A stretch of DNA of 54,010 nt, taken from Candidatus Saccharimonadota bacterium. Lineage in GTDB: Bacteria > Patescibacteriota > Saccharimonadia > Saccharimonadales > Saccharimonadaceae. This document shows, in pieces, positions 8,812 to 52,322 of this stretch (position 1 is its first letter; every line of letters starts with the position of its first letter). Under the pieces are notes generated by a model, which was not told the origin of the DNA, did no database searches, and saw only the letters and a program-made list of their open reading frames with translations. The position numbers and the translations under genes are program-made. Location of the stretch: assembly GCA_037135295.1 (NCBI GenBank), contig JBAXKN010000001.1:1-54010 (forward strand). The letters are read 5' to 3'.

Positions 8812-8821
8812 AATTTATCCT

Positions 8822-9190
8822 TTAAAAAGTATCTATTTTCCAAGTAATTGTTTCAGAACCTTTTGTTATATAAGTACCAGCACCCTCATTAGCTGGCTTG
8901 CCGTCAACATTAAATGACCAGAACTCTTTCTTTGCTGAATCGGCTGATACGCCATTTATACTATTAACCATACCCTCTGGACTAGCGTCTACTTTAGCGT
9001 TTTGTTTCAAAAGTTCAAGTGCGTTGACACCATCTTTACCTTTATATGATATTTCTTTTGCCTCAGTTTTTACTATGTTATCTGTTTTACTCTGTTTATT
9101 TTCATTAGACTTAAAGTAATATGCAGTTGCCGAAATACCACTTATTAATACTAGAGCCCCAATGATATATAAAATTATTCGTTTTTTCAT
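8822..9190 (-). CDS. secreted/lipid-anchored DUF4430-like protein (transcobalamin-like beta-domain family)
   Basis: Signal/TM N-terminus. The C-terminal pattern FWSFNVDGKPANEGAGTYITKGSETITWKI matches the W.[FY].VNG...G...Y.L..GD.I.W signature of DUF4430. Confidence 0.65.
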   Translation of the reverse strand: MKKRIILYIIGALVLISGISATAYYFKSNENKQSKTDNIVKTEAKEISYKGKDGVNALELLKQNAKVDASPEGMVNSINGVSADSAKKEFWSFNVDGKPANEGAGTYITKGSETITWKIDTF

Positions 9191-9215
9191 ATTGTTCCTT
9201 CAATATTATTAATTA

Positions 9216-11789: not shown

Positions 11790-11836
11790 TTTTTCACCTC
11801 TATCCCCATACATTTTGTGTCTTAATTTTTGCACAT

Positions 11837-28202: not shown

Positions 28203-31115
28203 ATGAAGCGTTATAATCCAACAGAAATTGAAAAAAAATGGCAAGAAGTTTGGGAAAATGAAGGCACCTATAAAGTAGACTTTTCTGACCATACAAAGCC
28301 AAAATACTACGCAATGAGTATGTTGCCGGGGATTACTGGTGCTGGGATTCATATTGGTCACGGACGAACCTTTCAGTTTAGCGATATTAAAGTTCGATCC
28401 AAGCGTCAGCAAGGATATAATGCATATCATCCTATTGGCTGGGATTCATTTGGTCTTCCAGTTGAAAATTATGCTATAAAAATCGGTAAAAACCCTAGGA
28501 TTGCTCATGATGAAGCTCTAGTTAATTTTAAACGTCAATTAAAGCGACTTGGTTATAGTTATGATTGGTCAAAAGAGATTAGCACGGCTGATCCATCTTA
28601 TTATCGTTGGACTCAATGGATTTTTAATCAATTATTTGAACGTGGTTTAGCCTATCAAAAACAAAGTCCACAATGGTGGTGTGAAACGGATCAAACGGTC
28701 CTTGCAAATGAACAAGTCGAAGCAGGCAAATGTTGGCGATGCGGTAATCAGGTTGTTAAAAAGAATCTTAAACAATGGTTTTTCAAGATTACCGAATATG
28801 CTGATGAAATATTGGATGCAACAGATGATCTAAATTGGACTGAAATGGTAAAAACCATGCAGAAAAATTGGATTGGGCGCTCTCAGGGTGCCGAAGTTGA
28901 ATTCAAGATAGATGGTAGTGATAAAATTATCACTGTTTTCACAACTCGTCCTGATACTCTATTTGGTGCTACTTTTATGGTTATCGCTCCCGAACATAAA
29001 TTTGTAAATGAATTAGTTACAGAAAATACCAAAAGTTCAGTTGAGTCATACGTAACTGAATCAGCTCGTAAATCAGAAATTGAGCGTATGAATGAGTCAC
29101 GCGAAAAAACGGGAGTGTTTACAGGCAGTTATGCTATTAACCCAGCAAATGGTGAAAATATTCCAATCTGGATAGCAGATTATGTATTAGCTGGTTATGG
29201 AACAGGCGCTATAATGGCAGTGCCTGCACATGATGAACGAGATTTTGCCTTTGCCGAAAAATTTAATTTGCCAATTTGTGCAGTTATTTCAAGAGACTTT
29301 GGTGAATTTCTACCAGACTCTAAAGAAGTTAGTGGAGTTGTAGTAATTGGCTATGATTCAAAAACAAAAAAATATATGAGTATCATGAACGGTGATAGGC
29401 GTTGGTTGGTAGGTGGCGGTCACGAGGATGGAGAATCTTATGAACAAACAGCTTATCGTGAACTAAAAGAAGAAGCCGGATTTATTGATGTTCAGAAAAT
29501 GGTTACATTGGGTGATCCTGTTTATTCGTATTATTATAATAGTATAAAAGACAGCAATCGTAGGTCGTTAGCATATAATTTCCTGGTCATGATTGACGCC
29601 AATAACCAAATTGAACAACAACAAGAATCTCATGAAAATTTTTCTGTAGTTTGGTCTGATATCGATGAAATTATTAATGATCTTAAAAAAGAAGATAGTG
29701 GTGCTCATCATTGGTTAGAAATATTATACAGGGCAAAATCAGCTGTAAAGGCCTACGAAACTGGTGATGTATATAAGCCAGACATATATTGTGGCGAAGG
29801 TGTATTGGTAAATTCTAGTGCTTTTGATGGAATGGCGTCAAGTGAAGCTCGTGAGGAAATTGTTGCTTGGCTTGAACAGCAAGGCGTTGGACGTACGAAA
29901 ACTGCATACAAAATGCGGGACTGGTTAATTAGTCGTCAGCGATATTGGGGTGCTCCAATCCCGATTATTCATTGTCCCGAGCATGGTGCTGTGGCAGTTC
30001 CTAATAATCAACTGCCGGTGATTCTACCTGATATCGATGATTACAAACCAAAAGACGGTGAAACCTCAGCTTTAGCTAGCGCTACCGATTGGGTGAATAC
30101 AACATGCCCAAACTGTGGAATGCCCGCGAAACGCGAGACAGACACTATGGATGGTTATGCCTGTAGTAGTTGGTATTTCCTACGCTATTTGGATCCATTT
30201 AATAATAAGCAAGCCTGGGATCCAGAGATTGAAAAGCACTGGGGACCTGTTGATTTTTACAATGGAGCCGACCATGCGGTTGCTCATTTACTGTATTCAC
30301 GTTTTTGGATGCGATTTTTCTATAAAATTGGTCTTGTCTCTACACCAGAACCATTTAAGCGCATGATGTATAACGCCTACATAATGGCACCAGATGGTTC
30401 AAAGATGAGCAAATCTAAAGGTAATACAATCGATCCACTCGAAATAATGGATAGTGGCTATGGCGCTGATAGTTTACGTGTTTACGAAATGTTTATCGCT
30501 CCTTACGATATAGAAGCGCCTTGGGACACTCGCGGTGTGCCTGGCTCATATCGTTTTTTAAACCGTGTTTGGAATTTGACCCAGGAATACATCGAATCTG
30601 GTGATGTTGATTTAGATAAAACTGCTGAAAACGAGATATTATCAATTGCTCATAAAACAGCCAAAAAAATAACCTCTGATATCGAAGACGATAAATTTAA
30701 CACAGCCGTGTCAGCAATGATGGAAGCTGTAAATAACTATTTCAAATTAAAGGAAAAATACAAAATTGGTAAATCACCTGCCTGGGACTTTGCAATCGAA
30801 AGCTTATTGCAGGTATTGTCGCCATTCTCGCCGCATATAACAGAGGAATTATGGCATCAAATAGGTAACAAAGACACTATTCATGTTGATCATTGGCCAA
30901 AGTGGGACAATAAATATCTGCAGTCCGATGTAATGACAATAATAGTCCAAGTGAATGGTAAGTTGCGAGCCAAACTAGAGCTTGCAAAAGATACAGATGA
31001 AGAAGATATTAAAAAACTTGCCTTAGGCAATGATAATGTGAAATTATTTATAGGAAATAAAAAACCGACCAAGGTTATTTATGTTCCTGGTCGGTTAGTG
31101 AATATCGTTGTCTAG
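28203..31115 (+). CDS. leuS: leucyl-tRNA synthetase carrying an inserted Nudix domain
   Basis: HIGH variant (HIGHG), CP1 editing motif TTRPDTLFGATFMVIAPEH, AVPAHDERDF, KMSKS. Total length 970 aa. Confidence 0.95.
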   Translation: MKRYNPTEIEKKWQEVWENEGTYKVDFSDHTKPKYYAMSMLPGITGAGIHIGHGRTFQFSDIKVRSKRQQGYNAYHPIGWDSFGLPVENYAIKIGKNPRIAHDEALVNFKRQLKRLGYSYDWSKEISTADPSYYRWTQWIFNQLFERGLAYQKQSPQWWCETDQTVLANEQVEAGKCWRCGNQVVKKNLKQWFFKITEYADEILDATDDLNWTEMVKTMQKNWIGRSQGAEVEFKIDGSDKIITVFTTRPDTLFGATFMVIAPEHKFVNELVTENTKSSVESYVTESARKSEIERMNESREKTGVFTGSYAINPANGENIPIWIADYVLAGYGTGAIMAVPAHDERDFAFAEKFNLPICAVISRDFGEFLPDSKEVSGVVVIGYDSKTKKYMSIMNGDRRWLVGGGHEDGESYEQTAYRELKEEAGFIDVQKMVTLGDPVYSYYYNSIKDSNRRSLAYNFLVMIDANNQIEQQQESHENFSVVWSDIDEIINDLKKEDSGAHHWLEILYRAKSAVKAYETGDVYKPDIYCGEGVLVNSSAFDGMASSEAREEIVAWLEQQGVGRTKTAYKMRDWLISRQRYWGAPIPIIHCPEHGAVAVPNNQLPVILPDIDDYKPKDGETSALASATDWVNTTCPNCGMPAKRETDTMDGYACSSWYFLRYLDPFNNKQAWDPEIEKHWGPVDFYNGADHAVAHLLYSRFWMRFFYKIGLVSTPEPFKRMMYNAYIMAPDGSKMSKSKGNTIDPLEIMDSGYGADSLRVYEMFIAPYDIEAPWDTRGVPGSYRFLNRVWNLTQEYIESGDVDLDKTAENEILSIAHKTAKKITSDIEDDKFNTAVSAMMEAVNNYFKLKEKYKIGKSPAWDFAIESLLQVLSPFSPHITEELWHQIGNKDTIHVDHWPKWDNKYLQSDVMTIIVQVNGKLRAKLELAKDTDEEDIKKLALGNDNVKLFIGNKKPTKVIYVPGRLVNIVV
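29290..29770 (+). other. in-frame Nudix-domain insertion within leuS (Nudix box at 29412-29483)
   Basis: GGHEDGESYEQTAYRELKEEAGF matches G-x5-E-x7-REUxEExGU at every fixed position. It lies between AVPAHDERDFAFAEKFNLPI and GEGVLVNSSAFDGM, segments that are only a few tens of residues apart in canonical bacterial LeuRS. Confidence 0.8.
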
Positions 31116-39654: not shown

Positions 39655-40200
39655 ATGGAATCAATACGTAAATTAGAAAACGTAATTGGAGGATGGTTAA
39701 AACCACTTCCACATTTGCCGGATACTTGGCGAAAATGGTTATCGGAAAATATCTGGTGGTTAACATTAATAGGGGTAATTTTAGAGGTTATTGCAATATT
39801 CATGCTAGTTGCTGCAATATTTGCTGCAATGGCAGTTGTTAGTACTACAGATGCATTTCTAGGTGCGTATTACAGAGCATCAGTCACAACATATTCTGGA
39901 ATGTGGTATTTTTCATCGATTGTATCAATAATTTTTATTATCGCAACAACAGCTATCACAGCAATGGCTATTAAACCTTTGCAGGGTATGAAGAAAAAAG
40001 GTTGGGACTTGTTATTTATAGTATTTCTATTAGGTGTTGCTTCGTCAGTTGTTAGTGCTGCCCTAAGTCTTACTTATAATGCGTATGGTCTAATACCAAA
40101 CATTGCCTCGGCCATCATTAGTGCTGTTATAGGTGCATATTTCTTATTTGAAATAAGATCACATTTTAACGCTGCTAAAGTAGTCAAAAAAGAAAAATAA
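39655..40200 (+). CDS. hypothetical 4-TM membrane protein
   Basis: 181-aa ORF with AAGGGGGA upstream. Confidence 0.6.
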   Translation: MESIRKLENVIGGWLKPLPHLPDTWRKWLSENIWWLTLIGVILEVIAIFMLVAAIFAAMAVVSTTDAFLGAYYRASVTTYSGMWYFSSIVSIIFIIATTAITAMAIKPLQGMKKKGWDLLFIVFLLGVASSVVSAALSLTYNAYGLIPNIASAIISAVIGAYFLFEIRSHFNAAKVVKKEK

Positions 40201-40250
40201 AATCAATACTTGAGCCGTCACCCTGATTAGTGTACAATTTGTATTGTTAA

Positions 40251-40395
40251 TGGGGTGTCGCCAAGTGGTAAGGTGAGAATTGCCAGACGGCAATTCGCAA
40301 GGCCGGAAGTGCGACGGCACTGAGGCGGGCTCGCGAAATTTATCCCCAGATAAATATTTGTGAGACGGGTTTTGGTCCTGGCACCAAAGCTGTAG
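40251..40395 (+). pseudogene. tRNA-Gln-derived 5' fragment (acceptor 5' strand, D arm, 92-nt insertion, degenerate UUG anticodon arm)
   Basis: 40251-40273 is 23/23 identical to 40434-40456. 40366-40382 matches the anticodon arm of the intact gene at 14/17 positions, including the loop TTTTGGT. The insertion starts with the hairpin GAATTGCC-AGAC-GGCAATTC. TACAAT lies 12 nt upstream, the same spacing as at the intact gene. Confidence 0.65.
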
Positions 40396-40415
40396 AAAAT
40401 TACAGCACTTTAAGA

Positions 40416-40421
40416 TATAAT
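40416..40421 (+). promoter_or_regulatory. -10 element (TATAAT) of tRNA-Gln
   Basis: Perfect TATAAT 12 nt upstream of tRNA nucleotide 1. Confidence 0.45.
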
Positions 40422-40433
40422 TGTTCATTGTAA

Positions 40434-40508
40434 TGGGGTGTCGCCAAGTGGTAAGGCACCGGCTTTTGGTGCCGGCATTCGGGGGTTCGAATCCCTCCAC
40501 CCCAGCCA
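40434..40508 (+). tRNA. tRNA-Gln(UUG)
   Basis: Acceptor TGGGGTG/CACCCCA (U1-A72), D arm GCC/GGC, anticodon arm CCGGC/TTTTGGT/GCCGG, T arm GGGGG/TTCGAAT/CCCTC, discriminator G, encoded CCA. 75 nt. Confidence 0.93.
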
Positions 40509-40511
40509 TAG

Positions 40512-40546
40512 AAAAAAGTCCTAGGTTTTTATCCTAGGACTTTTTC
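40512..40546 (+). terminator. intrinsic terminator of tRNA-Gln
   Basis: AAAAAGTCCTAGG/CCTAGGACTTTTT stem plus a T-run. Confidence 0.8.
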
Positions 40547-40582
40547 TATAACTGAGCTGTAGTGATTCGATGCCCCGAGTGA

Positions 40583-40703
40583 GCATTCGGGGGCGAAAAC
40601 TGCCAAACGGCAGTTTGAGAGAAACCTTTCAGATTATTAGCTGTGCTAATAGTATGTAAGTTTCGGGGTCGCGGAACGTGACCGAATCCCTCCACCCCAG
40701 CCA
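40583..40703 (+). pseudogene. tRNA-Gln-derived 3' fragment with a 90-nt insertion in the T loop
   Basis: GCATTCGGGGG (40583-40593) equals the variable loop plus T-stem 5' strand. GAATCCCTCCACCCCAGCCA (40684-40703) is 20/20 identical to 40489-40508. The insertion starts with the hairpin AAACTGCC-AAAC-GGCAGTTT. Confidence 0.65.
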
Positions 40704-40705
40704 AT

Positions 40706-40735
40706 AAAAACGCAGACCTTTTGGTCTGCATTTTT
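40706..40735 (+). terminator. intrinsic terminator after fragment C
   Basis: GCAGACC/GGTCTGC stem, TTTT loop, and a downstream T-run. Confidence 0.7.
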
Positions 40736-40744
40736 ATTGCCGTG

Positions 40745-40885
40745 GTCGGGATCCGAATCATCGGTTTTGTGAAACAAAACATCGCGGGGTTCGGCGAAGC
40801 GATTGAAGTGAAAAAGTGTTTACATTTTTTCGTGAATGAACGGAGAAGCGACACAAAGTGAAGCGCTATACCTCCACCCCAGTCA
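40745..40885 (+). pseudogene. second, more degenerate tRNA-Gln 3' fragment
   Basis: A degenerate T-arm-like stretch TCGGGATCCGAATC is followed by about 110 nt of hairpin-rich sequence. It ends with CCTCCACCCCAG (12/12 match) then TCA instead of CCA. Confidence 0.5.
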
Positions 40886-40888
40886 ATC

Positions 40889-40917
40889 ATAAGCACTCTG
40901 TATGAAGTGCTTATTTT
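40889..40917 (+). terminator. intrinsic terminator after fragment D
   Basis: 9-bp stem ATAAGCACT/AGTGCTTAT followed by TTTT. Confidence 0.7.
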
Positions 40918-40979
40918 ATTGCATTTAATGCTAATGTTTGTTTAAATTAGATTAAGTTTAATTTTTAATAGGATAAATC

Positions 40980-41618
40980 ATGAAAAAACAAATATACAAG
41001 TCAGGTTTTGCCCCAATTATTATAATAGTAGTCATAGTCGGTATGGTCGTAGTTGGAGTTTCAGGGTATTTATTTTATAAAAATTTTGTACAGAAAAAGT
41101 CTAATAACTCAATAGCCGGAACTAGCGCAAAACAAAAGTCAGATAATAATGTATACTCAGATAATAATTTAAGTTTTGAATATCCTAAAACAGGGTGGTC
41201 AACCACCACTAATACAAGAGATGATCCTTCTGGCTATGGTTTTAAGTACCACTCCGTATATTTACGTAGTGACGATTTCAAGGAGAGTGGTGATGGTAAT
41301 CCAGGTTCTTCAGCGAATATACTAGAGGGCACACAAATTTCTATTGTAAAGAATGGGCCAAACCCAGCTGGGGATAATGGTCCGAGAATCGATACAGAGG
41401 TTAAGTCTGCTGCCGACAGAGACTACTATACTGACGTTAACACTATAATGGTTGATGGATATAAAGCCTATAGTTACATCGATCAGTTTGGGTCACCTGT
41501 TACTAGATTTGCAAAAACTAATTACGAATATGGGATAGCAATTTTTCGTTCAGACAAAAAATACGACATGTATATGGCAGTCTATGATTTAATCAGGTCT
41601 ACCCTGAAGGTAAAATAG
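40980..41618 (+). CDS. hypothetical membrane-anchored/secreted protein
   Basis: 212-aa ORF with an N-terminal TM helix (FAPIIIIVVIVGMVVVGVSGYLF). Confidence 0.6.
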   Translation: MKKQIYKSGFAPIIIIVVIVGMVVVGVSGYLFYKNFVQKKSNNSIAGTSAKQKSDNNVYSDNNLSFEYPKTGWSTTTNTRDDPSGYGFKYHSVYLRSDDFKESGDGNPGSSANILEGTQISIVKNGPNPAGDNGPRIDTEVKSAADRDYYTDVNTIMVDGYKAYSYIDQFGSPVTRFAKTNYEYGIAIFRSDKKYDMYMAVYDLIRSTLKVK

Positions 41619-42046: not shown

Positions 42047-42171
42047 ATTAGTATATCGAGATTCACAAAAATACTGTTATCTGATACAGTTCGTCTGTTT
42101 ATTTTAAAATGTTAAAATTATAAAAAAGATATAATCAATTCGAATTTATATGGGCATGCTATAATATATTT

Positions 42172-42867
42172 ATGGGCGCCGGCTATACAGTTTTTTCATT
42201 TGGTCCTGTTATATTCTTTTTAATTTGTGCCATCTCTTCGGTTGCTTGGCTCACCTTGGCGATGAGCATTGCAATTAAGGGAATCGTAATTGTACCAGAG
42301 AAGAAATCTACTTTTATTAAGCTGTTTTACGTGGCAGCTATCTTTGCTGCTATCTTCTTTTTTGCAGTGGTAAAGTACGAGTGGCTTGGTGGCACTACTT
42401 CTTATGACGGTTTATATCATTCAACGGGTTTTATAGGTAGTATTATAATTGGCATAGTCGCGATTAGTATTAGAGATAATAATAAATTAAGGTCTTTTGG
42501 CGTAGGGTTACTGCCATTTTTCGTGGCAATTGGGTTTTTAATTGTTAATGCAACATTCACATCTGGCGCTTCTGGGGATTTAAATTCCTTATCGTACGTT
42601 ATTGGTTTCTTTTTTGCATCAATTCAGGTTATATACCCGTTGGCCTACTACTTTTACATTAAACAGCCTAGTAATATGCAAGCTGCTATTGATAAACGAA
42701 ATGCAAAAATAGACAAAAAAAATGCTAAAATGGGCATCGCAAACTCAAATCAAATGCCATCTGCATCTACACAACCTACCTATATGCCTCCAACGCAAAC
42801 TGCCGCAACACCACAAACTCAGTCAGAGCCTCTGAATGCCACGCAAGATACTACTAACAGGCAGTAG
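42172..42867 (+). CDS. polytopic membrane protein with a Q/T/P-rich C-terminal tail
   Basis: About 6 TM helices. First gene of the plus-strand half of the lipid locus. Confidence 0.65.
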   Translation: MGAGYTVFSFGPVIFFLICAISSVAWLTLAMSIAIKGIVIVPEKKSTFIKLFYVAAIFAAIFFFAVVKYEWLGGTTSYDGLYHSTGFIGSIIIGIVAISIRDNNKLRSFGVGLLPFFVAIGFLIVNATFTSGASGDLNSLSYVIGFFFASIQVIYPLAYYFYIKQPSNMQAAIDKRNAKIDKKNAKMGIANSNQMPSASTQPTYMPPTQTAATPQTQSEPLNATQDTTNRQ

Positions 42868-45004
42868 ACATTTTGTTGCATTAAAAGAAGCCCGAATACT
42901 TCATGATTCGGGTTGTGAAGTATATACGGCGGATAGTGTAAATTTTGACTATACGATGTATTCTAATGCAGTCAAAAAGCATTTTCTCGTTCCATCTGTA
43001 CGTTTTGAGGAAACGAAGTATATTGAAAAACTTTGTGAAATCATAATAGAGTACAAAATAGATGAGGTTGTAGCTCTTGGTGAGGAAACATTTTACCTAT
43101 CGAATAATATACAAAAGATTCGACAGTCATGTTCCGATGTCTGCATAAAACTAGATAGTCTTGATAAACTTTCCACATTACATAATAAATGGCTCTTTTA
43201 TAAGCTTTCCATGTCTTTAAAATTTACTGTACCGAAAACCGCACTCGTAAAATCACCAAGTGAAATTGCTAAGTTGCAACAGTGGTCATCACAACATAGC
43301 GTGATAAAGCCAATATATTCTCGATTTGGCTATGAGGTAAAAGAACTTTATGATATCAACATGACTGTGCTTGAGAGTCTCGATTGGGACGACGAGGATG
43401 GGTATATCATTCAAGAATATATCAAAGGTGAAGACATATCTTCTTTTTCAATGTCAAGCGATGGGAGTGACATCATCACGTATAAAAGTGCACTAACGAC
43501 TAGTGCACCGGGGGCAATGGCAGCTGCAATAAGGGTAGAAACACCGCAACAAGTGCGTGATATTGATATAAAAATACGTAAAGCGCTTAACTATTCTGGC
43601 CAACTGGGTTTAGATTTTCTATTAACGCCTGATGGTGAAATAGTTCTTCTGGAAGCAAACCCGCGAGCAACAATCGGACGAGTATTAATGCGACAACCAA
43701 AGATTCAATTTAGAATCATGATGCTACATCAGTTTTTAAATGGTTTAATACCGTTACGCGCGTGGCTAAAATATTTTTGGGTAATGACTTGGTATCCTGA
43801 TATGGTATGGAGTTGGAGAGATATTCGTCCGGCTTTTATGAGTCAAATTATGTGCAAGGGTCTTGGAACATATCTGCGTTTTTTGTCACGTCATTCTGGA
43901 GTTAGTTTTCAGGCATACAGCACCTATGACATGGAATATAATGGCGATAAAGTTATAATTTCCAAAGTTGAAAACCCTACAAAAAATGATGATAAAACCA
44001 TATTAAGTTTGTTGGAAGGCCTATCAAGAAAAGGTATGTTCTATTTAATTTATACTCGTCGTCCATCGCCACTACTATCATTTAAACATGAGCAAGCAAA
44101 TATCGGTGTGATAAAAGATAGTCGACAGGATATAAAATACATGTGCGCCTGCTCACATGACGAATACTATATTAACGGAAAATCTTGTGGGTTGGGGTAT
44201 TTGAGCGCAGTCCGGAAAAATCCAACTTTTCAAGGATTTATTGACTGGAGAATGCCATTTTTTAATTATTTTAGCGAAAGAAACTATTTTTTTTCAGTTA
44301 TGAAAAGTAACTCCCGTGCCATTCAAGCATTTACAAGACCCCACGAGTCACTCGTGCTATCAAGTCTGGTTGCAGACTATAATATTATGATCATCAACGC
44401 TCGTCGGATTGCTGTGCCACATCATAGTAAATGTATATTCAAAAATACAGTCGGCATTAATCGGGCAGAGTTGTTGGAATTTATTAATAGGGAAGGACGC
44501 AAATATAATTTCTTTCCGGTCGTGAACGAATATCTGCTTCAGCGCCTCGACATAACGGACAAAAACAGTTTTGTGCTATTGCGTGACGGTAACATAGTTG
44601 GTTTTGCTGGACTTGTAGATCAGAGAAAATGGAAGCAATTCATCATTGTTCGCTATGCGTGGATATTGCGTTTTATTCGAATCCCATTTAATTTGTTTGC
44701 TAGACGCTTAAGTTATATCTCTATTCCAAAACAAGACAAAACAGTTATATGTCCAACGGCGACTATTTTTGTGGTTTCCGAAAACGATCAGAATCTGTAC
44801 AAGGAGTTGTTATATGGTCTTTCTTGTGAAGCTAGAAAGAAAGCTGATATATTCACGTTGGCCGTAACAACAAAAAGCCCACTCTACAGATCGCTCCAGA
44901 CAAGATATAACTTTGCGATTGAAAATAATCTATATATTCAGGAGATAAACGGGCTTGCGGTTGACGGTAAGCAAGTATATGTAGATGCCCTTATGCTATA
45001 CTAG
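42836..45004 (+). CDS. 722-aa fusion: ATP-grasp ligase N-terminal half plus a large C-terminal domain of GNAT/Fem-like character
   Basis: Pre-ATP-grasp ILLTGSRHFVALKEARILHDSGCEVYTADS. ATP-grasp core KW..YKL...VPKT..V....E......VIKP..SRFG, IIQEYIKGEDIS, GLDFLLTPDGEIVLLEANPR. The C-terminal 340 aa have no motif I can name. The GNAT/Fem-like idea is inference. Confidence 0.7.
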   Translation: MPRKILLTGSRHFVALKEARILHDSGCEVYTADSVNFDYTMYSNAVKKHFLVPSVRFEETKYIEKLCEIIIEYKIDEVVALGEETFYLSNNIQKIRQSCSDVCIKLDSLDKLSTLHNKWLFYKLSMSLKFTVPKTALVKSPSEIAKLQQWSSQHSVIKPIYSRFGYEVKELYDINMTVLESLDWDDEDGYIIQEYIKGEDISSFSMSSDGSDIITYKSALTTSAPGAMAAAIRVETPQQVRDIDIKIRKALNYSGQLGLDFLLTPDGEIVLLEANPRATIGRVLMRQPKIQFRIMMLHQFLNGLIPLRAWLKYFWVMTWYPDMVWSWRDIRPAFMSQIMCKGLGTYLRFLSRHSGVSFQAYSTYDMEYNGDKVIISKVENPTKNDDKTILSLLEGLSRKGMFYLIYTRRPSPLLSFKHEQANIGVIKDSRQDIKYMCACSHDEYYINGKSCGLGYLSAVRKNPTFQGFIDWRMPFFNYFSERNYFFSVMKSNSRAIQAFTRPHESLVLSSLVADYNIMIINARRIAVPHHSKCIFKNTVGINRAELLEFINREGRKYNFFPVVNEYLLQRLDITDKNSFVLLRDGNIVGFAGLVDQRKWKQFIIVRYAWILRFIRIPFNLFARRLSYISIPKQDKTVICPTATIFVVSENDQNLYKELLYGLSCEARKKADIFTLAVTTKSPLYRSLQTRYNFAIENNLYIQEINGLAVDGKQVYVDALMLY

Positions 45005-45009
45005 GCATT

Positions 45010-45690
45010 ATGAAATATCTAATTAGTTTACTTAGTGACAAAGTTAACCCATGGGTGTTTGGGTTCTTCGCAATAGGGGCGCTTCTACTACTATTAATAT
45101 CAAGTTATTACTTGTGGCATAAAAAAAATAAAACTTTTCGATTATTCGGTGTTGGACTTGTACTAACTGGACTAGCTTTTACATGTTGGTCGTATGTAAC
45201 AGGCTTTCATCCAGAGAACATCGGGTTATATACAAACATAGGCGTGCTGCTTTTTCTAGGGGCATTGATTTCGTTCTTCCTTTCATATACAAGTACTATT
45301 AAGCGCAAGAAAGCGCGCATAGCATATTGGGCTGTTGGAACAGTCGCACTAGTGGCATTTATAACACTCCGATTCGTGCTACATAAGTCTAATCCTGGAT
45401 TTTCAGAAGACGGCTTTTTTTCTTTCAATATAGACCAATTGGTTGTTTATGCTTATGTTGTTCTGATTGCATTTTCTATGGTACCAGCTGCATATGGAGT
45501 TGCGGCTATAACAAAGAGCGCTCTTTTAGCGGGCGTGACACGGTTTGGTTTTTCGTTAATTACTATCGGTACTGCTATTCTAATCACTAGCCCCGATAAC
45601 TACATGCAAATCATTAATGGTACGGGCATGGTGGTTGGTATTGTTATGATCGCTGCAACACATATTTTTGTGCCGCTGGAATCTAAATAG
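45010..45690 (+). CDS. hypothetical 7-TM membrane protein
   Basis: 226-aa hydrophobic ORF starting 5 nt after the previous stop. Confidence 0.65.
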   Translation: MKYLISLLSDKVNPWVFGFFAIGALLLLLISSYYLWHKKNKTFRLFGVGLVLTGLAFTCWSYVTGFHPENIGLYTNIGVLLFLGALISFFLSYTSTIKRKKARIAYWAVGTVALVAFITLRFVLHKSNPGFSEDGFFSFNIDQLVVYAYVVLIAFSMVPAAYGVAAITKSALLAGVTRFGFSLITIGTAILITSPDNYMQIINGTGMVVGIVMIAATHIFVPLESK

Positions 45691-45692
45691 AA

Positions 45693-46244
45693 TTGTTTGC
45701 TCTTCAGACCTTAACGCTTATTTTACCAGTTTCGGTGTCTGGTGTTATGCTGATTATCTGTCTAAAAACGGGTGCCTTTTCATCGTGGGACATACCAGTA
45801 GATCACGGTATTTTATTTAAGGGTAAATCACTATTCGGTCGAAACAAAACCTACCGTGGTGTGATTATATATATAGTTGGATCTTTGGCTACTACAGTAT
45901 TGCTATGGTCATTACGTCTGAATGGTGAGATGTGGGTTCACTGGGTCTTTGCATATAACCCAATTGTACTGGGTTGCCTTTTTGGTCTTTCATACTCACT
46001 GGGCGAATTGATCAATAGCTTTATTAAACGTCGCCTTGGTATTAAACCGGGAGGTGTAAATTCACATTTTACCGAAATTCAATATTTTTTTGATCTTGTG
46101 GATGGACCGGTTGTAGTAACTATAGTTTTGATTGTTATTTATGGCTTTAGTTGGCAATCTTTGGCGGCCCTGTTTTTTGGGGTTTTAATCCACTGGTTTG
46201 CCGAGTTTGCCATGTATAAGTTAAATCTTAAAAAGAAGCATTAA
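45693..46244 (+). CDS. CDP-archaeol synthase (CarS, DUF46) family CTP-transferase-like membrane protein
   Basis: 183 aa, 5 TM helices. Motifs KGKSLFGRNKTYRG, GELINSFIKRRLGIKPG and a C-terminal YKLNLKK resemble the conserved G(D)GKTWRG / SFIKRR / LNLK blocks I recall for archaeal CarS. Confidence 0.65.
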   Translation: MFALQTLTLILPVSVSGVMLIICLKTGAFSSWDIPVDHGILFKGKSLFGRNKTYRGVIIYIVGSLATTVLLWSLRLNGEMWVHWVFAYNPIVLGCLFGLSYSLGELINSFIKRRLGIKPGGVNSHFTEIQYFFDLVDGPVVVTIVLIVIYGFSWQSLAALFFGVLIHWFAEFAMYKLNLKKKH

Positions 46245-46832
46245 GGCTGTAGCCGCTAGAGGCACAGTAAGGTTATCACTCCCAAAAGGCGAGAAACGTT
46301 CTACTACAGTAACCCCAAGGGCAACTCCCATGGCCATTAATAGCGGTGAGTTTGTACATAAAATTATTACTACACTTGCAATGGCAAAGAAAACAAGTGA
46401 GCCTGCTATCGTCTTCTTGTTTTTATTTAGTAAATATACCGTTAAACCTGCGCCACTATCGGCAAGAGTTAAAATTAAAATACTGGCAACATAAATATAG
46501 GGCGTATGAGACACAAGTACGAGGGGTGCGAGTATACCAATTGGAAGGAACACTTCTCCGTATGTTGGCCGTTTAACGCCATTTATAGATGAGAGTAGTT
46601 TTTTCCGAAATGAGATTGCGATAAACAAAGCCAGAATTGATACAATAAATACATATAACCAGATGGGACCTTCAATAAATCCCAAAGTAGCTACTATACC
46701 TAGTGTTATATGTACAAGTTTACGCGTTATTTCGGGAGAGACACGAAATTTACGACTGGTATACTCGATTACAGTAACGATGACAATTGGTAAAAGTATA
46801 AGTATTGCCGAAATAATAGGACGTCTAATCAT
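46221..46832 (-). CDS. polyprenol (dolichol/phytol) kinase-like protein, CTP-transferase 1 family
   Basis: ITRKLVHITLG and ADSGAGLTVYLLNKNKKTIAGSLVFF patterns are as in SEC59/VTE5-type kinases. I moved the start to ATG 46832 (MIRRP), which forms an ATGA overlap with the upstream GNAT stop. Confidence 0.6.
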   Translation of the reverse strand: MIRRPIISAILILLPIVIVTVIEYTSRKFRVSPEITRKLVHITLGIVATLGFIEGPIWLYVFIVSILALFIAISFRKKLLSSINGVKRPTYGEVFLPIGILAPLVLVSHTPYIYVASILILTLADSGAGLTVYLLNKNKKTIAGSLVFFAIASVVIILCTNSPLLMAMGVALGVTVVERFSPFGSDNLTVPLAATALMLLFKI

Positions 46833-47305
46833 TTTTTCGCCAATCTGACTATATAGATTGCTTGTCGTTTTGCTAAATGACTGGCAACTCGTAGGCATGA
46901 ATGGACGCGTTTTGTAATAAATTTACCTCGGCTTAGTGACGTAATTTCTAAAAGTGAGGATTTATGATAGCCATGGTTGTTACAGAAATGATTGATAATA
47001 TATGGGGAATATGAAGCCACAACGTAAGTCTGGTTTTTTAGAGTCAATTCATCAATAAGTCGAGAAAAAATTCCTTGACGTCGATAGGATGGGTGAATAT
47101 ATGCGCCACCTATTTCGTAAACATTACTACATAAATGCTCAGAGATTAGCCAACCAACAATCTTGTTTTCATCTCGGGCAATGGCGATCTTGTTCGATTT
47201 TAGTGAAGCTTTTGATCGAGGAGTTAGTTCGTCAGTTTCATTAAGTAAGCGAATGATTTCATCTAGGTCTTTTGCGGTGGGATCAGTAGTGACGGTTATA
47301 GCCAT
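46829..47305 (-). CDS. GNAT family acyltransferase
   Basis: Acetyl-CoA-binding motif YRRQGIFSRLIDEL. 158 aa. Confidence 0.75.
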   Translation of the reverse strand: MAITVTTDPTAKDLDEIIRLLNETDELTPRSKASLKSNKIAIARDENKIVGWLISEHLCSNVYEIGGAYIHPSYRRQGIFSRLIDELTLKNQTYVVASYSPYIINHFCNNHGYHKSSLLEITSLSRGKFITKRVHSCLRVASHLAKRQAIYIVRLAKK

Positions 47306-47898
47306 ATGAATCCAATGATGCCAATTATTATCGCTACTGGTGCCCAGAATAATAAGGCGCCTGACTTTCGAGTTTTTATATTAGACAATTGGAGAAGAGC
47401 AAATATTGAAATACAACCGGCAACAAGTAATTGTGGTAGTTGTACTACATGTACAATAATTAAAAATATAAATGTAATTAGTGATAAGTGGCAAGTAATT
47501 AAACCTCGGTAGTAAGTGATGCCTTTTTTCTTTATGTAGCCTTCTTGGTTAAATCCTGCAAGTCGAATTATGCCAGTGGCAATTACAATAAAGCCTACGA
47601 TTGCGCCGAGTGTTCCTGGTAAAATTTCTTTCCAAATGACTAATGCTGAAAGTAGAGAGTAGTTGAATGAATCGACTATACTGTCGAGCTGACGACCGAA
47701 TTCGCTAATAAGATTTAGTTTACGCGCAACGAAACCATCAAGACTATCGAGTAAAAATGCTCCAACCGCCATAACTACACTGGCTTTAAGATTGTTCGAG
47801 AGTAATAGTAAAATTGCTATCCATGAAAAAAGCAGGCTCATCAATGTAATGGCGCCAGGTATATGTAGTTTATTTATTATCTGTTTTGCGTTTTTCAA
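47296..47898 (-). CDS. CDP-alcohol phosphatidyltransferase (phosphatidylserine/archaetidylserine synthase-like)
   Basis: Complete family signature DSLDGFVARKLNLISEFGRQLDSIVD (D-x2-DG-x2-AR-x8-G-x3-D-x3-D) plus about 6 TM helices. Confidence 0.85.
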   Translation of the reverse strand: MKNAKQIINKLHIPGAITLMSLLFSWIAILLLLSNNLKASVVMAVGAFLLDSLDGFVARKLNLISEFGRQLDSIVDSFNYSLLSALVIWKEILPGTLGAIVGFIVIATGIIRLAGFNQEGYIKKKGITYYRGLITCHLSLITFIFLIIVHVVQLPQLLVAGCISIFALLQLSNIKTRKSGALLFWAPVAIIIGIIGFIWL

Positions 47899-50185
47899 GT
47901 ATTATTTCTCCTGATAACCCGTCCATTATAACAAAATCACCATTTTTGTAACGGGTTGTTGAGTCTTGAGCGCCAACTATAGCCGGAATACCAAGCTCGC
48001 GAGCGACGATGGCAACATGTGATAGGGCGTTACCACGTTCTGTTATTACACCCACAGCTTGCGTAAATAGTAGTGTCCAACCCGGATCAATGTGAGTAAC
48101 AACTAAAATTTTACCCGATATATCTAGGTGCGGGTTAAAAGTCGTTGCAACAACAATATATCCGGATACTTTTCCGTTTGAAACACCTGTTCCGAGTTGA
48201 AGTTTACCAGACGGCTTTTTTTCATTAACTAAGTGGATTGGAGCGATTTTGCCCCGCCCTGAAACAAGCAACGACATAGTGCAAGATTCATACTCTTTTA
48301 TTTTATTTTTTCGACTAGTTACTAAATATTTGGCGTTGTAGTCCAATGTGTGACCATTGATAATCTCTTCAATTTCTCGTTCGTATAGATAGTAAATGTC
48401 ACGTGGGGTATCGATAATACCTTCGTCGGAAAACCTCTTGCCAATAACCAAATAGGCATCGCTTGCCATGCGGAATACTTGAGCCCTGTTAAATCTAAAA
48501 CTTTCGCGCCAGTCGATAGCTTGGCGTGTATTTTTTGCAAGGTAGTGTATCAACAGTCCGTGGGTAGAGATTTGCGTTCCGCTATTAGGTGGTGAATTGT
48601 AGTTTGAACCGTTGGAATGGCTAGCGAGTATCATGATGTCTTCTATATTTTCTGTAATAGGAACACTCTCAAGTTTAAGTTCGTCTGGAGTTCTAGCGGA
48701 ATATTTCTTGGTGTACGCCATTGTTTTATCAATACACTCCTGCCATGACTCAGTATTCTTTAATAAATCAATCGTAGTCACATTCTGTTTTTTTATTTGA
48801 GAATTTATAAAGTCTCCGAGTTCTTGAAGCGCTTGAAGTGGTTTAATACTCGCTCGTTTTGTTAAACCTTGTAATACCTGTAAGTACTCTTCGTGACTAT
48901 ATCGCTTGAGAAGTTGTTTTTTTAGCATACCGTGAAATACCATAGTACGAAAGTCATTAAGCACTGGCATAGCCCATAATTCAAGCAAACTACTCTTCGT
49001 TTGTTGGATATTGTAGAAAATAGTGTTGGCATTCACGTTATCAGGTATAGCCTGATGAAGAGCACCGTACCGTTGTGAAAATAGGCGAGTGAACTTTCGA
49101 GAAATTCTAGGAGAATTGAGTATTACCCATATAAACCTGGCTATCGCCATAGTAGATCTTACATCCATTCGTGTAGTGTTCTTTAAAGCACCACGCTTTT
49201 TAACTGGATTTAACATAGATTCAAAATAGACCTGGTTATGTCGACCTGGGATCAACTCGACCAGCTTGTACCAGTTTGAAATACGATAATACACATGACC
49301 ATTTAGATATCCCAGCATATTTTCAAACACGTCTGATTTTGCGTTTAAGATATTTTTATTTATACCGATTATTTGCAAAAACTCTGGGTATACTTGTGCA
49401 TATATCGAACGAATAAATGAATAAGTTAGAGGTAATGTCGTACCTGGGTAGTTTTCTGAAATATTAGTACTATCCCAAACTAGATCATAATCAAGATTTG
49501 TTGTAGTTTGAGGCCGCATTTGCAAGTACACAAGGCTTTTGCCGTCATATGACCACTCAATATCAAGTGGCATATTAAGTGTCTGTTCTAGTCTACTTAC
49601 TTCATTAGCGAGTTTCCGCATGTGGCTAGGTGCTACGCTATTGGCGATGCTAATTTTTGGAACCAAATATTGCTTAGCAGACTCATTCTCTACAACGGCG
49701 TTCTTCCATGAGTCGGTGTAGACAATGTGCATATTACCATTACCGTCTTCACTAAAAATAACGCCACTCTGTTTTCCATAAAACATCTCTTGAACGATCA
49801 ACGAACCACCAGCTTTTAGCTCTAAACCATGTTTACACGCATATTGTCTTACGCCTTCGCTGAATGTACTTTTATAACAATCAATAATGTATTTTTTCAG
49901 TGCTGTTTTTGAATATGTGATGTCGACAAATGACTTGTATTGACCAGCAAATGAAGAGCGCTCACCGTCTTCTTGAAGCGCCGATGTCCGAAAACTTACC
50001 TTGCCCCAACCTTTTTTTTCAAGCTCGAGGTGTACCTTGTCTATAGCTGCATTATTAAGGGTTATTATGTCCGTCTTGCGATTTTTTTCAATGGCTTCAT
50101 CGAACGGTATAATTAAAAAATCTGGTACCGAAAGCTGGAACTCGTCTCTCAATCGAATCAAATTATTCGCTTTGTTGCCTATCAT
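47870..50185 (-). CDS. three-domain PEP-utilising-enzyme-family dikinase (rifampin-phosphotransferase-like architecture)
   Basis: N-terminal PPDK_N/ATP-grasp motifs (GNKANNL, SFRTSALQEDGERSSFAGQYKSF, LIVQEMF..QSGVIFS). An unassignable central region of about 430 aa. C-terminal swivel His domain ERGNALSHVAIVARELGIPAIVG. I moved the start to ATG 50185 (MIGNKANNL), which overlaps the UbiA stop as ATGA. Confidence 0.8.
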   Translation of the reverse strand: MIGNKANNLIRLRDEFQLSVPDFLIIPFDEAIEKNRKTDIITLNNAAIDKVHLELEKKGWGKVSFRTSALQEDGERSSFAGQYKSFVDITYSKTALKKYIIDCYKSTFSEGVRQYACKHGLELKAGGSLIVQEMFYGKQSGVIFSEDGNGNMHIVYTDSWKNAVVENESAKQYLVPKISIANSVAPSHMRKLANEVSRLEQTLNMPLDIEWSYDGKSLVYLQMRPQTTTNLDYDLVWDSTNISENYPGTTLPLTYSFIRSIYAQVYPEFLQIIGINKNILNAKSDVFENMLGYLNGHVYYRISNWYKLVELIPGRHNQVYFESMLNPVKKRGALKNTTRMDVRSTMAIARFIWVILNSPRISRKFTRLFSQRYGALHQAIPDNVNANTIFYNIQQTKSSLLELWAMPVLNDFRTMVFHGMLKKQLLKRYSHEEYLQVLQGLTKRASIKPLQALQELGDFINSQIKKQNVTTIDLLKNTESWQECIDKTMAYTKKYSARTPDELKLESVPITENIEDIMILASHSNGSNYNSPPNSGTQISTHGLLIHYLAKNTRQAIDWRESFRFNRAQVFRMASDAYLVIGKRFSDEGIIDTPRDIYYLYEREIEEIINGHTLDYNAKYLVTSRKNKIKEYESCTMSLLVSGRGKIAPIHLVNEKKPSGKLQLGTGVSNGKVSGYIVVATTFNPHLDISGKILVVTHIDPGWTLLFTQAVGVITERGNALSHVAIVARELGIPAIVGAQDSTTRYKNGDFVIMDGLSGEIILEKRKTDNK

Positions 50186-51006
50186 ATAAACAACAATAAC
50201 CCTTGGATTGCCAGTGATATGCCAAACGCTGCTTGTATCAACTCGAATTTTCCAGAATAAGTAAATAATACCGAAATCAGAGCTAATATTAAATGCCAAA
50301 TATTACCAGTTATAACAGATAGAAAAATACCGATAAATGACACCATTGTTATAAGTAGTACAGTTGTAAAAGGCGCACCCCATACGGCAGGGTAGGAATC
50401 TTTAACGATCTTACCATGTGTATTATGACGATATTCTAGTTTTCGAATAATTTCGAATACAGACATTGTCATTACGAATGCCAGACCGCCGAGTAGCGCC
50501 CTAAGGTTTAGCTGTACGCCAAAAGTTATAAAACCCCACATAGCAAACACGACAAATATCATCTGATGAGTAATAAAATATATAGTAAAGTGTTTATTCA
50601 GCCATGATGATATAAAAAATTCTTTTGCTGTCAACGCAGAGTATACTAGCACCGGTATGTAAAATATGACTGCTTTAGGGTTGATAATATACAATGAGCC
50701 GAGTTCAATAATAAGTGAGATTACTCCAATGCCAATTAATTGCCGTGAGCTGATTGCTCCGCGTTGAAAAGGACGGTTGGGGTAGTTTTTAGAGTCATGA
50801 TCTATATCTTTGAACTCATCAGTTACTCGAAGTCGTAGTAGGAATGCCGCAAATGATAAAGCTACTAGCCCTATGATTACGAAACTAGTCGCAGTACCAG
50901 TAAGATGACTACATACACCCATAATCATCAAGCTGTAGCTAAGCGACAGTAATAAGACAAGTTGGACTGGAAAACGTTCTTTAAAGTACAGGATGATTGA
51001 ATTCAT
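50182..51006 (-). CDS. UbiA-superfamily prenyltransferase (divergent)
   Basis: First Asp-rich motif TDEFKDIDHD followed by NRPFQRG. 8-9 TM helices. The second Asp-rich motif is poorly conserved. Confidence 0.7.
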   Translation of the reverse strand: MNSIILYFKERFPVQLVLLLSLSYSLMIMGVCSHLTGTATSFVIIGLVALSFAAFLLRLRVTDEFKDIDHDSKNYPNRPFQRGAISSRQLIGIGVISLIIELGSLYIINPKAVIFYIPVLVYSALTAKEFFISSWLNKHFTIYFITHQMIFVVFAMWGFITFGVQLNLRALLGGLAFVMTMSVFEIIRKLEYRHNTHGKIVKDSYPAVWGAPFTTVLLITMVSFIGIFLSVITGNIWHLILALISVLFTYSGKFELIQAAFGISLAIQGLLLFI

Positions 51007-51167
51007 CTCTCGATTATATCACTCTTATAACTATGTGTTGGATTATGATGAAAGAATCAATCAATATAAAATTTATCGACTTGTTGAGTTCTTTTTCGGT
51101 AATCTTTTTTTATTAATATATCGACATTAACAAAAATACTTCCAGATTCTTAAAATCTGACAATATT

Positions 51168-52322
51168 TCACTTTACTGTTACGTTATCAGATGAGTTATC
51201 AATTTTCTCTTGATCATTTCTTGTTGATATAAATATATCTGATGTGGTAAGTAGTAATATGACAATTAATGGTCCGTAAACTATCCCTATTGTACCAAAG
51301 TAATATAATCCACAAAAAGTTGCTAGTGTGGTTATGGCAGGTATTACGTTGGCCTTTTTCGGAATTAAATGTGGCCTCATTACAGTGTCAAGGTTGCATA
51401 TTAACCCCAGATATATCACAAGGCTCCAAATGGCTGGCCAAGTATTACCTATAACCATTTGAATAATTATTATAGGTATAACGACTATCCCACTGCCGAG
51501 TGGTACCATACCTAGAATTGTAAAGACGAATACAAATAAAACAAAAAACTGCATCATTCCAAATGCAATACCTATTAAAAGTGCCGAGCTAATAGCTGTT
51601 ACTAACGATATAATAAATTGGCCTCTTAAACTAGCCGCAACAATAAGACCAGACCTGTTTATGTATTTATTACTGATATCTTCATCAAAGGGACTTATGT
51701 TCCTGATGTACTGCTGTAGAGATTCATTGTGCTTTAGTATGGCTAGAAATATAAAAGTATAGACTATTACTGATGTAAATAAATATGGAATATTGGAAAG
51801 AAAGTTAGTTATTCCCTTGGTCATCTGATTAATAGTTAAGGGTAAAAGTTTATTAAAAAAATCCGCTAATGAATCTGCGTTAATTAATGAATTATTTCCA
51901 AATGGGGCTAGTAGACTATTTATATTCGATACTACCGAGCCATTAATTATTCTTGTAAATGTTTGTGAATCAAAGTTTACTCCTACTAACGTCTTTGAAA
52001 AGTTAACTAATTGACTAAACGCAGATACGGATAAGACCGCGATAGGAATAATAATAATCAAAGAACTGATTAAATAAACAATAACCGACGATATATTATC
52101 TGGTAGATATTTTGTCGATTTCCGGTAAAGCGGTAACCAAAGGAAAGCCATGAGTGCAGCCAGACAGATTGTACCGATGAAAGGTGAAAAGAATAAGAAA
52201 GCAACTACGATACAAACAGCGCCTATAATAGTCCAGTTAGGCTTTCTTTTATTTATTACCTTTATGTTTTGCTCCTTATTAAATATATTTTGTATTATGA
52301 CTCTAACAGGAGCGTGCGTCAA
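51168..52322 (-). CDS. AI-2E (PerM/UPF0118) family transporter
   Basis: 384 aa and about 8 TM helices, with the size and topology typical of the family. The family call rests on general resemblance only. Confidence 0.6.
   Translation of the reverse strand: MTHAPVRVIIQNIFNKEQNIKVINKRKPNWTIIGAVCIVVAFLFFSPFIGTICLAALMAFLWLPLYRKSTKYLPDNISSVIVYLISSLIIIIPIAVLSVSAFSQLVNFSKTLVGVNFDSQTFTRIINGSVVSNINSLLAPFGNNSLINADSLADFFNKLLPLTINQMTKGITNFLSNIPYLFTSVIVYTFIFLAILKHNESLQQYIRNISPFDEDISNKYINRSGLIVAASLRGQFIISLVTAISSALLIGIAFGMMQFFVLFVFVFTILGMVPLGSGIVVIPIIIIQMVIGNTWPAIWSLVIYLGLICNLDTVMRPHLIPKKANVIPAITTLATFCGLYYFGTIGIVYGPLIVILLLTTSDIFISTRNDQEKIDNSSDNVTVK

Follow-up and report, generated by a model that had tools for sequence, protein, structure and literature searches.

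A nine-gene cluster in a Saccharimonadota genome combines archaeal-type and bacterial-type enzyme families in a candidate phospholipid pathway whose core is shared with Actinomycetota

A stretch of 54,010 nt from a Candidatus Saccharimonadota bacterium (contig JBAXKN010000001.1, positions 1 to 54,010; hereafter the window) was analyzed together with 13 related loci, each with its flanks within about 10 kb. Ten open reading frames (ORFs) were located at 42172-52322 in two convergent operons, all of them where the initial annotation had placed them. Nine of the ten, O1 to O9 (42172-51006), form a conserved unit, in which an archaeal-type cytidine triphosphate (CTP)-transferase is combined with a UbiA enzyme and a PssA-like transferase; this mixed set had been proposed from the sequence and was confirmed. 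With an even balance of confidence and doubt, the nine genes are read here as a membrane pathway to an isoprenoid-bearing, cytidine diphosphate (CDP)-activated, serine-type, N-acylated phospholipid. The genes are listed below.

O1, 42172..42867, plus strand: membrane protein with 5-6 transmembrane (TM) segments and a Pro/Gln/Thr-rich tail.
O2, 42836..45004, plus strand: soluble 722-aa ATP-grasp/tandem-GNAT fusion (Pfam, NCBIfam, AlphaFold2 model and Foldseek).
O3, 45010..45690, plus strand: membrane protein with about 7 TM segments, weakly MAB_1171c-like.
O4, 45693..46244, plus strand: CarS-like CTP:lipid-phosphate cytidylyltransferase, 183 aa, TTG start.
O5, 46221..46832, minus strand: integral membrane protein, 203 aa, apparently a divergent SEC59/DGK1/VTE5 member (profile searches).
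O6, 46829..47305, minus strand: small soluble GNAT N-acyltransferase, 158 aa (Pfam Acetyltransf_1 and Acetyltransf_7).
O7, 47296..47898, minus strand: CDP-alcohol phosphatidyltransferase, 200 aa, TTG start.
O8, 47870..50185, minus strand: soluble RPH-type dikinase, 771 aa.
O9, 50182..51006, minus strand: divergent UbiA-superfamily prenyltransferase, 274 aa, about 8-9 TM segments, heading the minus-strand operon.
O10, 51168..52322, minus strand: AI-2E family permease (Pfam, 3.2e-24), a neighbor outside the conserved unit.

The family calls of the initial annotation were right throughout, including the RPH-like dikinase and the polyprenol-kinase-like O5, for which a family profile was needed. 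Polytopic membrane proteins account for six of the nine members of the unit; O2, O6, and O8 are soluble.

The genes are closely packed. The ATGA start/stop overlaps at 50182-50185 (O9/O8) and 46829-46832 (O6/O5) and the overlaps of 29 nt at 47870-47898 (O8/O7) and 10 nt at 47296-47305 (O7/O6), all four reported earlier, were verified in the sequence, and all five minus-strand genes from O9 to O5 are chained via overlapping start and stop codons. O1 runs 32 nt into O2. Where the convergent O4 and O5 meet, their 3' ends share 24 nt (46221-46244), and a 3'-end overlap of 9-45 nt between the CarS-like and kinase genes was found in 10 of 11 loci across phyla (the window, L006, L009, L014, L021-L023, and L026-L028; the exception, Agreia, has a 26-nt gap). 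This overlap leaves no room for a terminator between the two operons, and thus the transcript ends would be antisense to each other. Alignment with orthologs placed the starts of O8 at 50185 (771 aa) and of O5 at 46832 (203 aa), and showed that the long starts (TTG or ATG) of O4, O7, and O9 are the conserved ones.

O1 (box at 42160-42165, plus strand) and O9 (box at 51013-51018, minus strand) each have a TATAAT box 6 nt before the ATG. TATAAT was also seen 6-7 nt before the ATG of several further genes, including those starting at 25325 and 31521, and TATAAT-N4-8-ATG sites numbered 18 in the window against 9.6 +/- 3.1 in shuffled sequence, an arrangement that suggests leaderless transcripts in this genome. 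A sigma-70 promoter scan returned a chance-level result (46 sites against 43 expected) and was discarded.

The AI-2E gene was excluded from the unit because it lies 161 nt away from the start of UbiA, which is preceded by a TATAAT box of its own, and because tblastn detected no AI-2E homolog in the 13 related loci, among them L011, the closest. Thus, the proposed ten-gene unit held in being co-inherited and translationally coupled, but it comprises nine genes, and the possible export function attached to the permease fell away. The GC content of the locus (0.381) is near that of the rest of the window (0.358), and therefore any transfer would be old.

At least seven other loci contain the nine genes, at 35-75% identity and in collinear or rearranged form, with flanks that differ each time. 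Around distant homologs of O2 (38-50% identity), collinearity holds for L009, L021, and L022, and L006 and L023 show rearrangements. In all, genes of the cluster were found together in at least 12 loci, whose flanking genes are unrelated. A chance adjacency of the genes was therefore rejected on the basis of this recurrent synteny with differing flanks; in related genomes the genes are syntenic rather than scattered, the latter being what the initial annotation had named as evidence against a common system. Two further loci, L012 (Planctomycetales) and L013 (Gammaproteobacteria), proved to contain a PRK06849-like ATP-grasp only and were set aside as not the same system.

The dikinase O8 has 168 homolog clusters, and many full-length relatives (39-46% identity) bear Actinomycetota names (Rhodoluna, Microbacteriaceae, Agreia pratensis, and Leucobacter coleopterorum). 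The core genes keep the same order in Actinomycetota (Agreia, Leucobacter, and Rhodoluna): UbiA is followed by the dikinase, the CDP-OH transferase, and two proteins of about 168 aa and about 200 aa, and a CarS-like gene converges on them. This core operon was seen in L025 (Agreia pratensis), in L026 (a metagenome-assembled genome of freshwater Actinomycetota), and in two more clades (L027 and L028). Orthologs of the GNAT O6 are present in all core loci, and UbiA is present in every locus, always translationally coupled to the dikinase. Neither O1 nor O2 was found in L025, L026, L027, or L028, and O1 is limited to loci with O2. Orthologs of O3 were identified in L026 (31% identity) and L027 (45%), so O3 also occurs in some loci lacking O2. 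The conserved core thus consists of six to seven genes, the seventh being the 7-TM O3, and is common to Actinomycetota and Saccharibacteria-type loci. It is not specific to Patescibacteria and is more widespread in Actinomycetota, cultured Microbacteriaceae included, which undercuts host-lipid dependence as the reason for the locus, a rationale offered in the initial annotation. The O1-O2 module is a rare add-on found only in Saccharibacteria-type loci. Actinomycetota is the phylum to which the known hosts of cultivated Saccharibacteria belong (PMC10633639).

In a neighbor-joining tree of 123 dikinases, which had a very distant outgroup, no support values, and mostly unlabeled tips, the O2-associated copies formed one clade nested among Actinomycetota-labeled lineages. 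This topology would be compatible with a single transfer.

Two variants of the cluster bear on its chemistry. The distant, O2-bearing L024 (1-12226) has, in order, genes for a CarS-like protein, dikinase, CDP-OH transferase, phosphatidylserine (PS) decarboxylase, and UbiA, followed by a 529-aa protein in which the swivel domain was the only domain assigned, an unassigned 354-aa protein, an AMP-binding enzyme, O1, and O2. Since the decarboxylase immediately follows the transferase, a serine head group is favored. The 529-aa and 354-aa proteins are possibly the two halves of a split second dikinase; the 354-aa protein tested negative as a stand-alone tandem GNAT. No orthologs of the GNAT O6, O5, or O3 were found within the fetched L024 DNA. 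In L028 (1-16960, GC 0.34), which represents a basal clade, genes for a PlsC-type acyltransferase and an epimerase/dehydratase diverge from UbiA, and a 351-aa ATP-grasp gene lies beside CarS, followed by a serine recombinase, an MprF-type LPG_synthase_TM gene, and DUF2079. The PlsC-type acyltransferase and LPG_synthase_TM argue for a glycerolipid. The low GC content of L028 suggests neither a typical actinobacterium nor the lineage of the window, and its 351-aa ATP-grasp tested negative as a relative of O2.

Full-text literature searches returned no published description of the cluster, in keeping with the initial annotation, whose author knew of no described pathway with this composition. Other UbiA and ATP-grasp lipid operons are described in the Lipocone survey (10.1101/2025.01.14.632903), but this cluster is not.

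O4 matched the Pfam family CarS-like (PF01864) with 46.1 bits against a gathering score of 22 (E = 7e-12), and its closest solved protein is CarS of A. pernix (5GUF, 3e-6). The motifs P-x-D, G-x2-K-T, E-x2-N-S-F-x-K-R-R, and D-x2-D-G are kept. The polar motifs G-x2-K-T, S-F-x-K-R-R-x-G, and D-x2-D align with those of A. pernix CarS and are invariant or nearly so in 10 orthologs. In a review of archaeal lipids, CarS is treated as archaeal and prefers digeranylgeranylglyceryl phosphate (DGGGP) over phosphatidate (PMC9385802). O7 matched CDP-OH_P_transf with 59.9 bits (gathering score, 22; E = 4.9e-16), and its signature, D-x2-D-G-x2-A-R...G-x3-D-x3-D, is complete, as had been claimed; residues D51, D54, G55, A58, R59, G68, D72, and D76 are invariant in 9 orthologs. 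The closest solved proteins are 7POW and 7B1K (M. jannaschii PS synthase; 6e-7). By sequence comparison, O7 appears closest to phosphatidylserine and archaetidylserine synthases, although its score against archaetidylserine synthase was 55 bits against a cut-off of 200-240.

O9 reached 45.1 bits against the UbiA gathering score of 34.2 (E = 9.8e-12). Its first motif, D-E-x2-D-x3-D...R-P-x-Q-R-G, is kept, with D63, E64, D67, D71, R78, and P79 invariant. The nearest solved enzyme, at a marginal profile E value of 0.042, is DGGGP synthase (DGGGPS) of M. jannaschii (6M31).

O8 consists of an N-terminal ATP-grasp domain (PPDK_N), a middle substrate domain, and a C-terminal swivelling His domain (PEP-utilizers, residues 729-797 of the 809-aa ORF); the PEP/pyruvate barrel (PEP-utilizers_C) was not found in O8 by Pfam. 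The catalytic His lies in NALSHVAIVARE and is conserved in all 122 family members compared. Its closest solved proteins are 5FBS and 5HV1, the Listeria rifampin phosphotransferase, and the PigC and RedH ligases are among its NCBIfam matches, O8 lying far below the PigC cut-off. For O5, no Pfam or Protein Data Bank (PDB) sequence match was obtained, either alone or as a 7-sequence profile. In a large database, a profile of the O5 family reached proteins named phytol kinase, dolichol kinase, SEC59/DGK1/VTE5, and diacylglycerol/polyprenol kinase at 1e-17 to 1e-29, and 4 of 35 aligned relatives of O5 matched PF01148. On this profile evidence, O5 is a predicted member of the CTP-dependent SEC59/DGK1/VTE5 lipid-kinase family (COG0170; CTP_transf_1 superfamily).

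In the add-on module, residues 1-295 of O2 are an ATP-grasp ligase (ATP-grasp_3, 37.8 bits against a gathering score of 23.2; PRK06849, 3e-54), residues 296-375 form a Trp-rich linker of low model confidence, and residues 376-722 adopt a tandem GNAT acyltransferase fold in an AlphaFold2 model of residues 296-722 (pLDDT 83.8). In Foldseek searches, the C-terminal part matched tandem-GNAT acetyltransferases and N-myristoyltransferases (E about 1e-11, TM-scores 0.44-0.50). Given its lipid-operon setting, O2 may acylate or aminoacylate the head group of a lipid. The fusion is rare: 20 clusters at 90% identity, all of about 720 aa, were found among 5.8 billion proteins, and one true relative among 185,579 species-representative genomes, with a few in JGI metagenome contigs. 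An exhaustive profile search showed that most occurrences of the tandem-GNAT module are stand-alone proteins about 360 aa long (2118 representatives at E < 1e-3), against 5 representatives of the fusion (50% identity). The stand-alone family (P0283-P0427, relatives of window positions 43961-45004) has no Pfam or NCBIfam model, and one such relative, P0375, is fused to an HpnJ-like B12-binding radical-SAM domain. O1 gave no family match in profile searches; it always lies directly upstream of O2 and overlaps it, and is thus likely its membrane partner. O3 resembles the actinobacterial MAB_1171c putative-transporter family weakly but consistently (five of seven orthologs), pointing to a putative transporter or flippase.

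In the scheme that we infer from these assignments, with its substrates, its order of steps, and its isoprenoid tail, the pathway would make an isoprenoid phospholipid or rebuild one from lipid alcohols. O9 would move a prenyl chain onto a lipid backbone, and O5 would phosphorylate a lipid alcohol in a CTP-dependent manner. O8 might add a second, ATP-driven phosphorylation via phospho-histidine, converting prenyl phosphate to the diphosphate for UbiA or acting on the UbiA product. O4 would convert the lipid phosphate to a CDP-lipid with CTP, O7 would exchange CMP for L-serine, and O6 would N-acylate the amine of the head group. In Saccharibacteria-type loci, O1 would dock O2, an enzyme expected to make further amide-linked additions to the head group, and movement of the product may fall to O3. 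This scheme, the most economical one, is proposed because O4, O7, O8, and O9 fall into their families with intact catalytic signatures, because the nearest solved relatives of O4 and O7, and marginally of O9, are archaeal lipid enzymes, and because of the profile link of O5 to lipid kinases, the ATP-grasp and tandem-GNAT folds of O2, the preponderance of membrane proteins, the overlapping genes, their recurrent co-occurrence, and the variants L024 and L028. An isoprenoid product is plausible.

Several observations weigh against the proposed isoprenoid pathway. All NCBIfam equivalog cut-offs were missed widely: O4 scored 55.9 bits against NF003114 (CDP-2,3-bis-(O-geranylgeranyl)-sn-glycerol synthase; cut-off, 148), O7 scored 62.8 bits against its best equivalog, TIGR00473 (pssA; cut-off, 107), O8 scored 141.5 bits against Rph (cut-off, 999), and O9 scored 22 bits against the DGGGP synthase equivalog PRK12883 (cut-off, 353). 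Thus, the substrates may differ from those of the named enzymes, and O4, O7, O8, and O9 are members of the families, not orthologs of the named enzymes. O9 also lacks the second Asp-rich motif in the TM6-TM7 loop, where an invariant E185-x2-R188-K189 is found instead; at this position, DGGGPS of M. jannaschii has EIVKDFEDMEGD and O9 has EIIRKLEYRHNT. The CarS and UbiA assignments (45693..46244 and 50182..51006) therefore stand at the Pfam family level but not at that of the equivalogs. The model of O5, at a pLDDT of 93.7, gave a best Foldseek E-value of 0.5 against the PDB, i.e., no fold match. Two phosphorylating enzymes exceed the needs of a linear pathway, and the step given to O8, which could be either of the two named above, is a guess and the weakest part of the scheme. 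No genes for geranylgeranylglyceryl phosphate synthase (GGGPS), glycerol-1-phosphate (G1P) dehydrogenase, or geranylgeranyl diphosphate synthase were found in the window or within about 10 kb of the 13 related loci. In addition, serine or ether-isoprenoid phospholipids are not known from routine polar-lipid profiles of Microbacteriaceae.

The most serious competitor is the decoration of a polyprenyl-phosphate carrier, which we regard as improbable. O5 would phosphorylate a linear polyprenol such as undecaprenol or decaprenol, O4 would form CDP-polyprenol, and O7 would add serine, giving a polyprenyl-phospho-serine-type envelope or carrier lipid, while UbiA and the dikinase would serve the supply of prenyl diphosphate or a phosphoribosyl-type transfer like that of decaprenyl-phosphate phosphoribosyltransferase. 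The UbiA superfamily includes this actinobacterial enzyme, the core is mainly actinobacterial, dolichol and polyprenol kinases are among the relatives of O5, and most loci are devoid of glycerol-phosphate backbone enzymes. However, CarS and PssA-type enzymes are known only to act on two-chain glycerolipids (PMC9385802), a PlsC-type acyltransferase adjoins the cluster in L028, and the PS decarboxylase of L024 is an enzyme known from glycerophospholipids. The latter two genes would fit the salvage of diacylglycerol, to which a slightly lower likelihood is assigned. In that case, O5 would be a DGK1-like diacylglycerol kinase using CTP, O4 would replace CdsA, and O7 would replace PssA, so that scavenged diacylglycerol would yield PS/phosphatidylethanolamine and N-acyl derivatives, with UbiA and the dikinase in a side reaction. 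DGK1 is within the family names reached by O5, CdsA, PlsY, and PlsC were not seen in the window, and Patescibacteria are thought to depend on host lipids. Such a side reaction is at odds with the presence of UbiA in every locus and its constant coupling to the dikinase, and archaeal CarS discriminates against phosphatidate (PMC9385802). Moreover, free-living Actinomycetota with their own phospholipid synthesis keep the cluster, so salvage would not be its general role.

A role outside lipid metabolism, with an RPH/PigC-type dikinase activating or inactivating a hydrophobic small molecule such as a prenylated metabolite or antibiotic, is considered very improbable. The relationship of O8 to 5FBS/5HV1 and the PigC and RedH matches speak for it, but O8 falls far under both the Rph and PigC cut-offs and the dikinase always stands amid five or six integral-membrane lipid enzymes. 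It is also retained beside housekeeping genes in streamlined freshwater Actinomycetota genomes.

In the rest of the window, whose gene content is Patescibacteria-like, the only other lipid-metabolism gene in 54 kb encodes a PLD-type cardiolipin synthase (PLDc_N and two PLD domains; 22361-23776, plus strand). No genes for CdsA, PlsY, PlsC, PgsA, or isoprenoid precursors were seen there. A 970-aa leucyl-tRNA synthetase (28203-31115, plus strand) has a NUDIX hydrolase inserted at about residues 402-499, just past the editing domain. The region 7684-11834 is cobalamin-related and encodes a CobA/BtuR corrinoid adenosyltransferase, a DUF6580 membrane protein, a DUF4430 protein, and a class II (B12-dependent) ribonucleotide reductase with a TSCPD domain. 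The region 2464-6512 encodes a 791-aa protein with collagen triple-helix repeats, and then a pilin-like one that combines an N_methyl motif with beta-propeller repeats, and a second N_methyl protein, with a Fib_succ_major domain, is encoded at 20786-21751; the collagen-repeat and N_methyl proteins are probably surface proteins or belong to a type IV pilus. The stretch 40159-40980, about 0.8 kb of non-coding sequence, holds a tRNA-Gln (40434-40508), and two 116-aa minus-strand ORFs that overlap or adjoin this tRNA look spurious. The remaining 470 nt of the stretch gave no Rfam match.

CarS has so far been viewed as a hallmark of archaeal membranes. If the isoprenoid phospholipid pathway proposed here is correct, the bacterial cluster would represent a new crossing of the 'lipid divide' and would place the RPH-type dikinase family in lipid metabolism for the first time. 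Since the core is found in cultured, genetically tractable Microbacteriaceae, its lipid product is directly identifiable. A core common to the epibiont and the host phylum, together with an add-on of the epibiont, provides a handle on how these parasites build or disguise their membranes. In a bolder form, which we consider doubtful, some Actinomycetota (Microbacteriaceae such as Agreia, Leucobacter, and Rhodoluna) and the Saccharibacteria-type epibionts with this locus would make an archaeal-style N-acylated serine isoprenoid ether lipid through a CDP-archaeol-like intermediate formed by a bacterial CarS, with the prenyl or lipid-phosphate substrates coming from a hitherto unknown phospho-histidine dikinase step; the cluster would have moved between the host phylum and the epibiont, and the epibiont would then have added O2 to re-decorate the head group, for instance so as to match the host surface or mask it.

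Among known systems, the archaeal archaetidylserine route (DGGGPS, CarS, archaetidylserine synthase, and decarboxylase) uses families of which three are present in the cluster and four in L024. Its chemistry, activation by CTP and then replacement of CMP by an alcohol, is the same, and the nearest solved relatives of O4 and O7, and marginally of O9, are archaeal. The carriers here, however, are bacterial, with neither GGGPS nor G1P dehydrogenase seen in the window or the locus flanks; the cluster adds an RPH-type dikinase, a VTE5/SEC59-like kinase, and a GNAT, and it departs from the archaeal enzymes in the lost second UbiA motif and the missed equivalog cut-offs. Phytol salvage of plants and cyanobacteria employs the phytol kinase VTE5, the phytyl-phosphate kinase VTE6, and the UbiA-type enzymes VTE2 and ChlG. 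The cluster likewise has a VTE5-family kinase, a UbiA enzyme, and a second phosphorylating enzyme, which could turn a prenol into a prenyl-diphosphate donor. In contrast to phytol salvage, no VTE6-family protein is present in the locus, the second kinase would be an unrelated phospho-histidine dikinase that allows no more than a functional analogy, and the cluster goes on to CDP activation and head-group chemistry.

The archaeal-type lipid genes GGGPS and DGGGPS have been reported in FCB-group bacteria, Firmicutes, and Actinobacteria (Villanueva et al., PMC7852524; PMC6431249), and Coleman et al. (PMC6431249) surveyed bacterial G1P dehydrogenase, GGGPS, and DGGGPS, but not CarS. The cluster resembles these cases in that relatives of archaeal enzymes, including a DGGGPS-like UbiA in Actinobacteria, occur in bacteria; its hallmark is instead the pairing of CarS-like and PssA-like enzymes with two lipid-phosphorylating enzymes and a GNAT, and GGGPS was not seen. 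RPH and the PEP-synthase-like enzymes of the PigC/RedH/YvkC type share the domain order and the invariant catalytic His of O8. These enzymes phosphorylate hydroxyl groups of hydrophobic substrates, converting ATP to AMP and phosphate. O8 differs from RPH and PigC in its location in a lipid operon, coupled to UbiA and a CDP-alcohol transferase, and in scores far below the cut-offs. Regarding systems that act on head-group amines (MprF/aminoacyl-phosphatidylglycerol, N-acyl-phosphatidylethanolamine, Eis-type, and N-myristoyltransferase), the C-terminal half of O2 shares the Eis-like/N-myristoyltransferase tandem-GNAT fold, whereas O2 is fused to an ATP-grasp and paired with the membrane protein O1, and no tRNA-dependent domain was found in it. 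In summary, the cluster is best filed as a variant of the CDP-activated phospholipid head-group pathways, in which the archaeal-type activation enzyme is unusual and the dikinase unprecedented.

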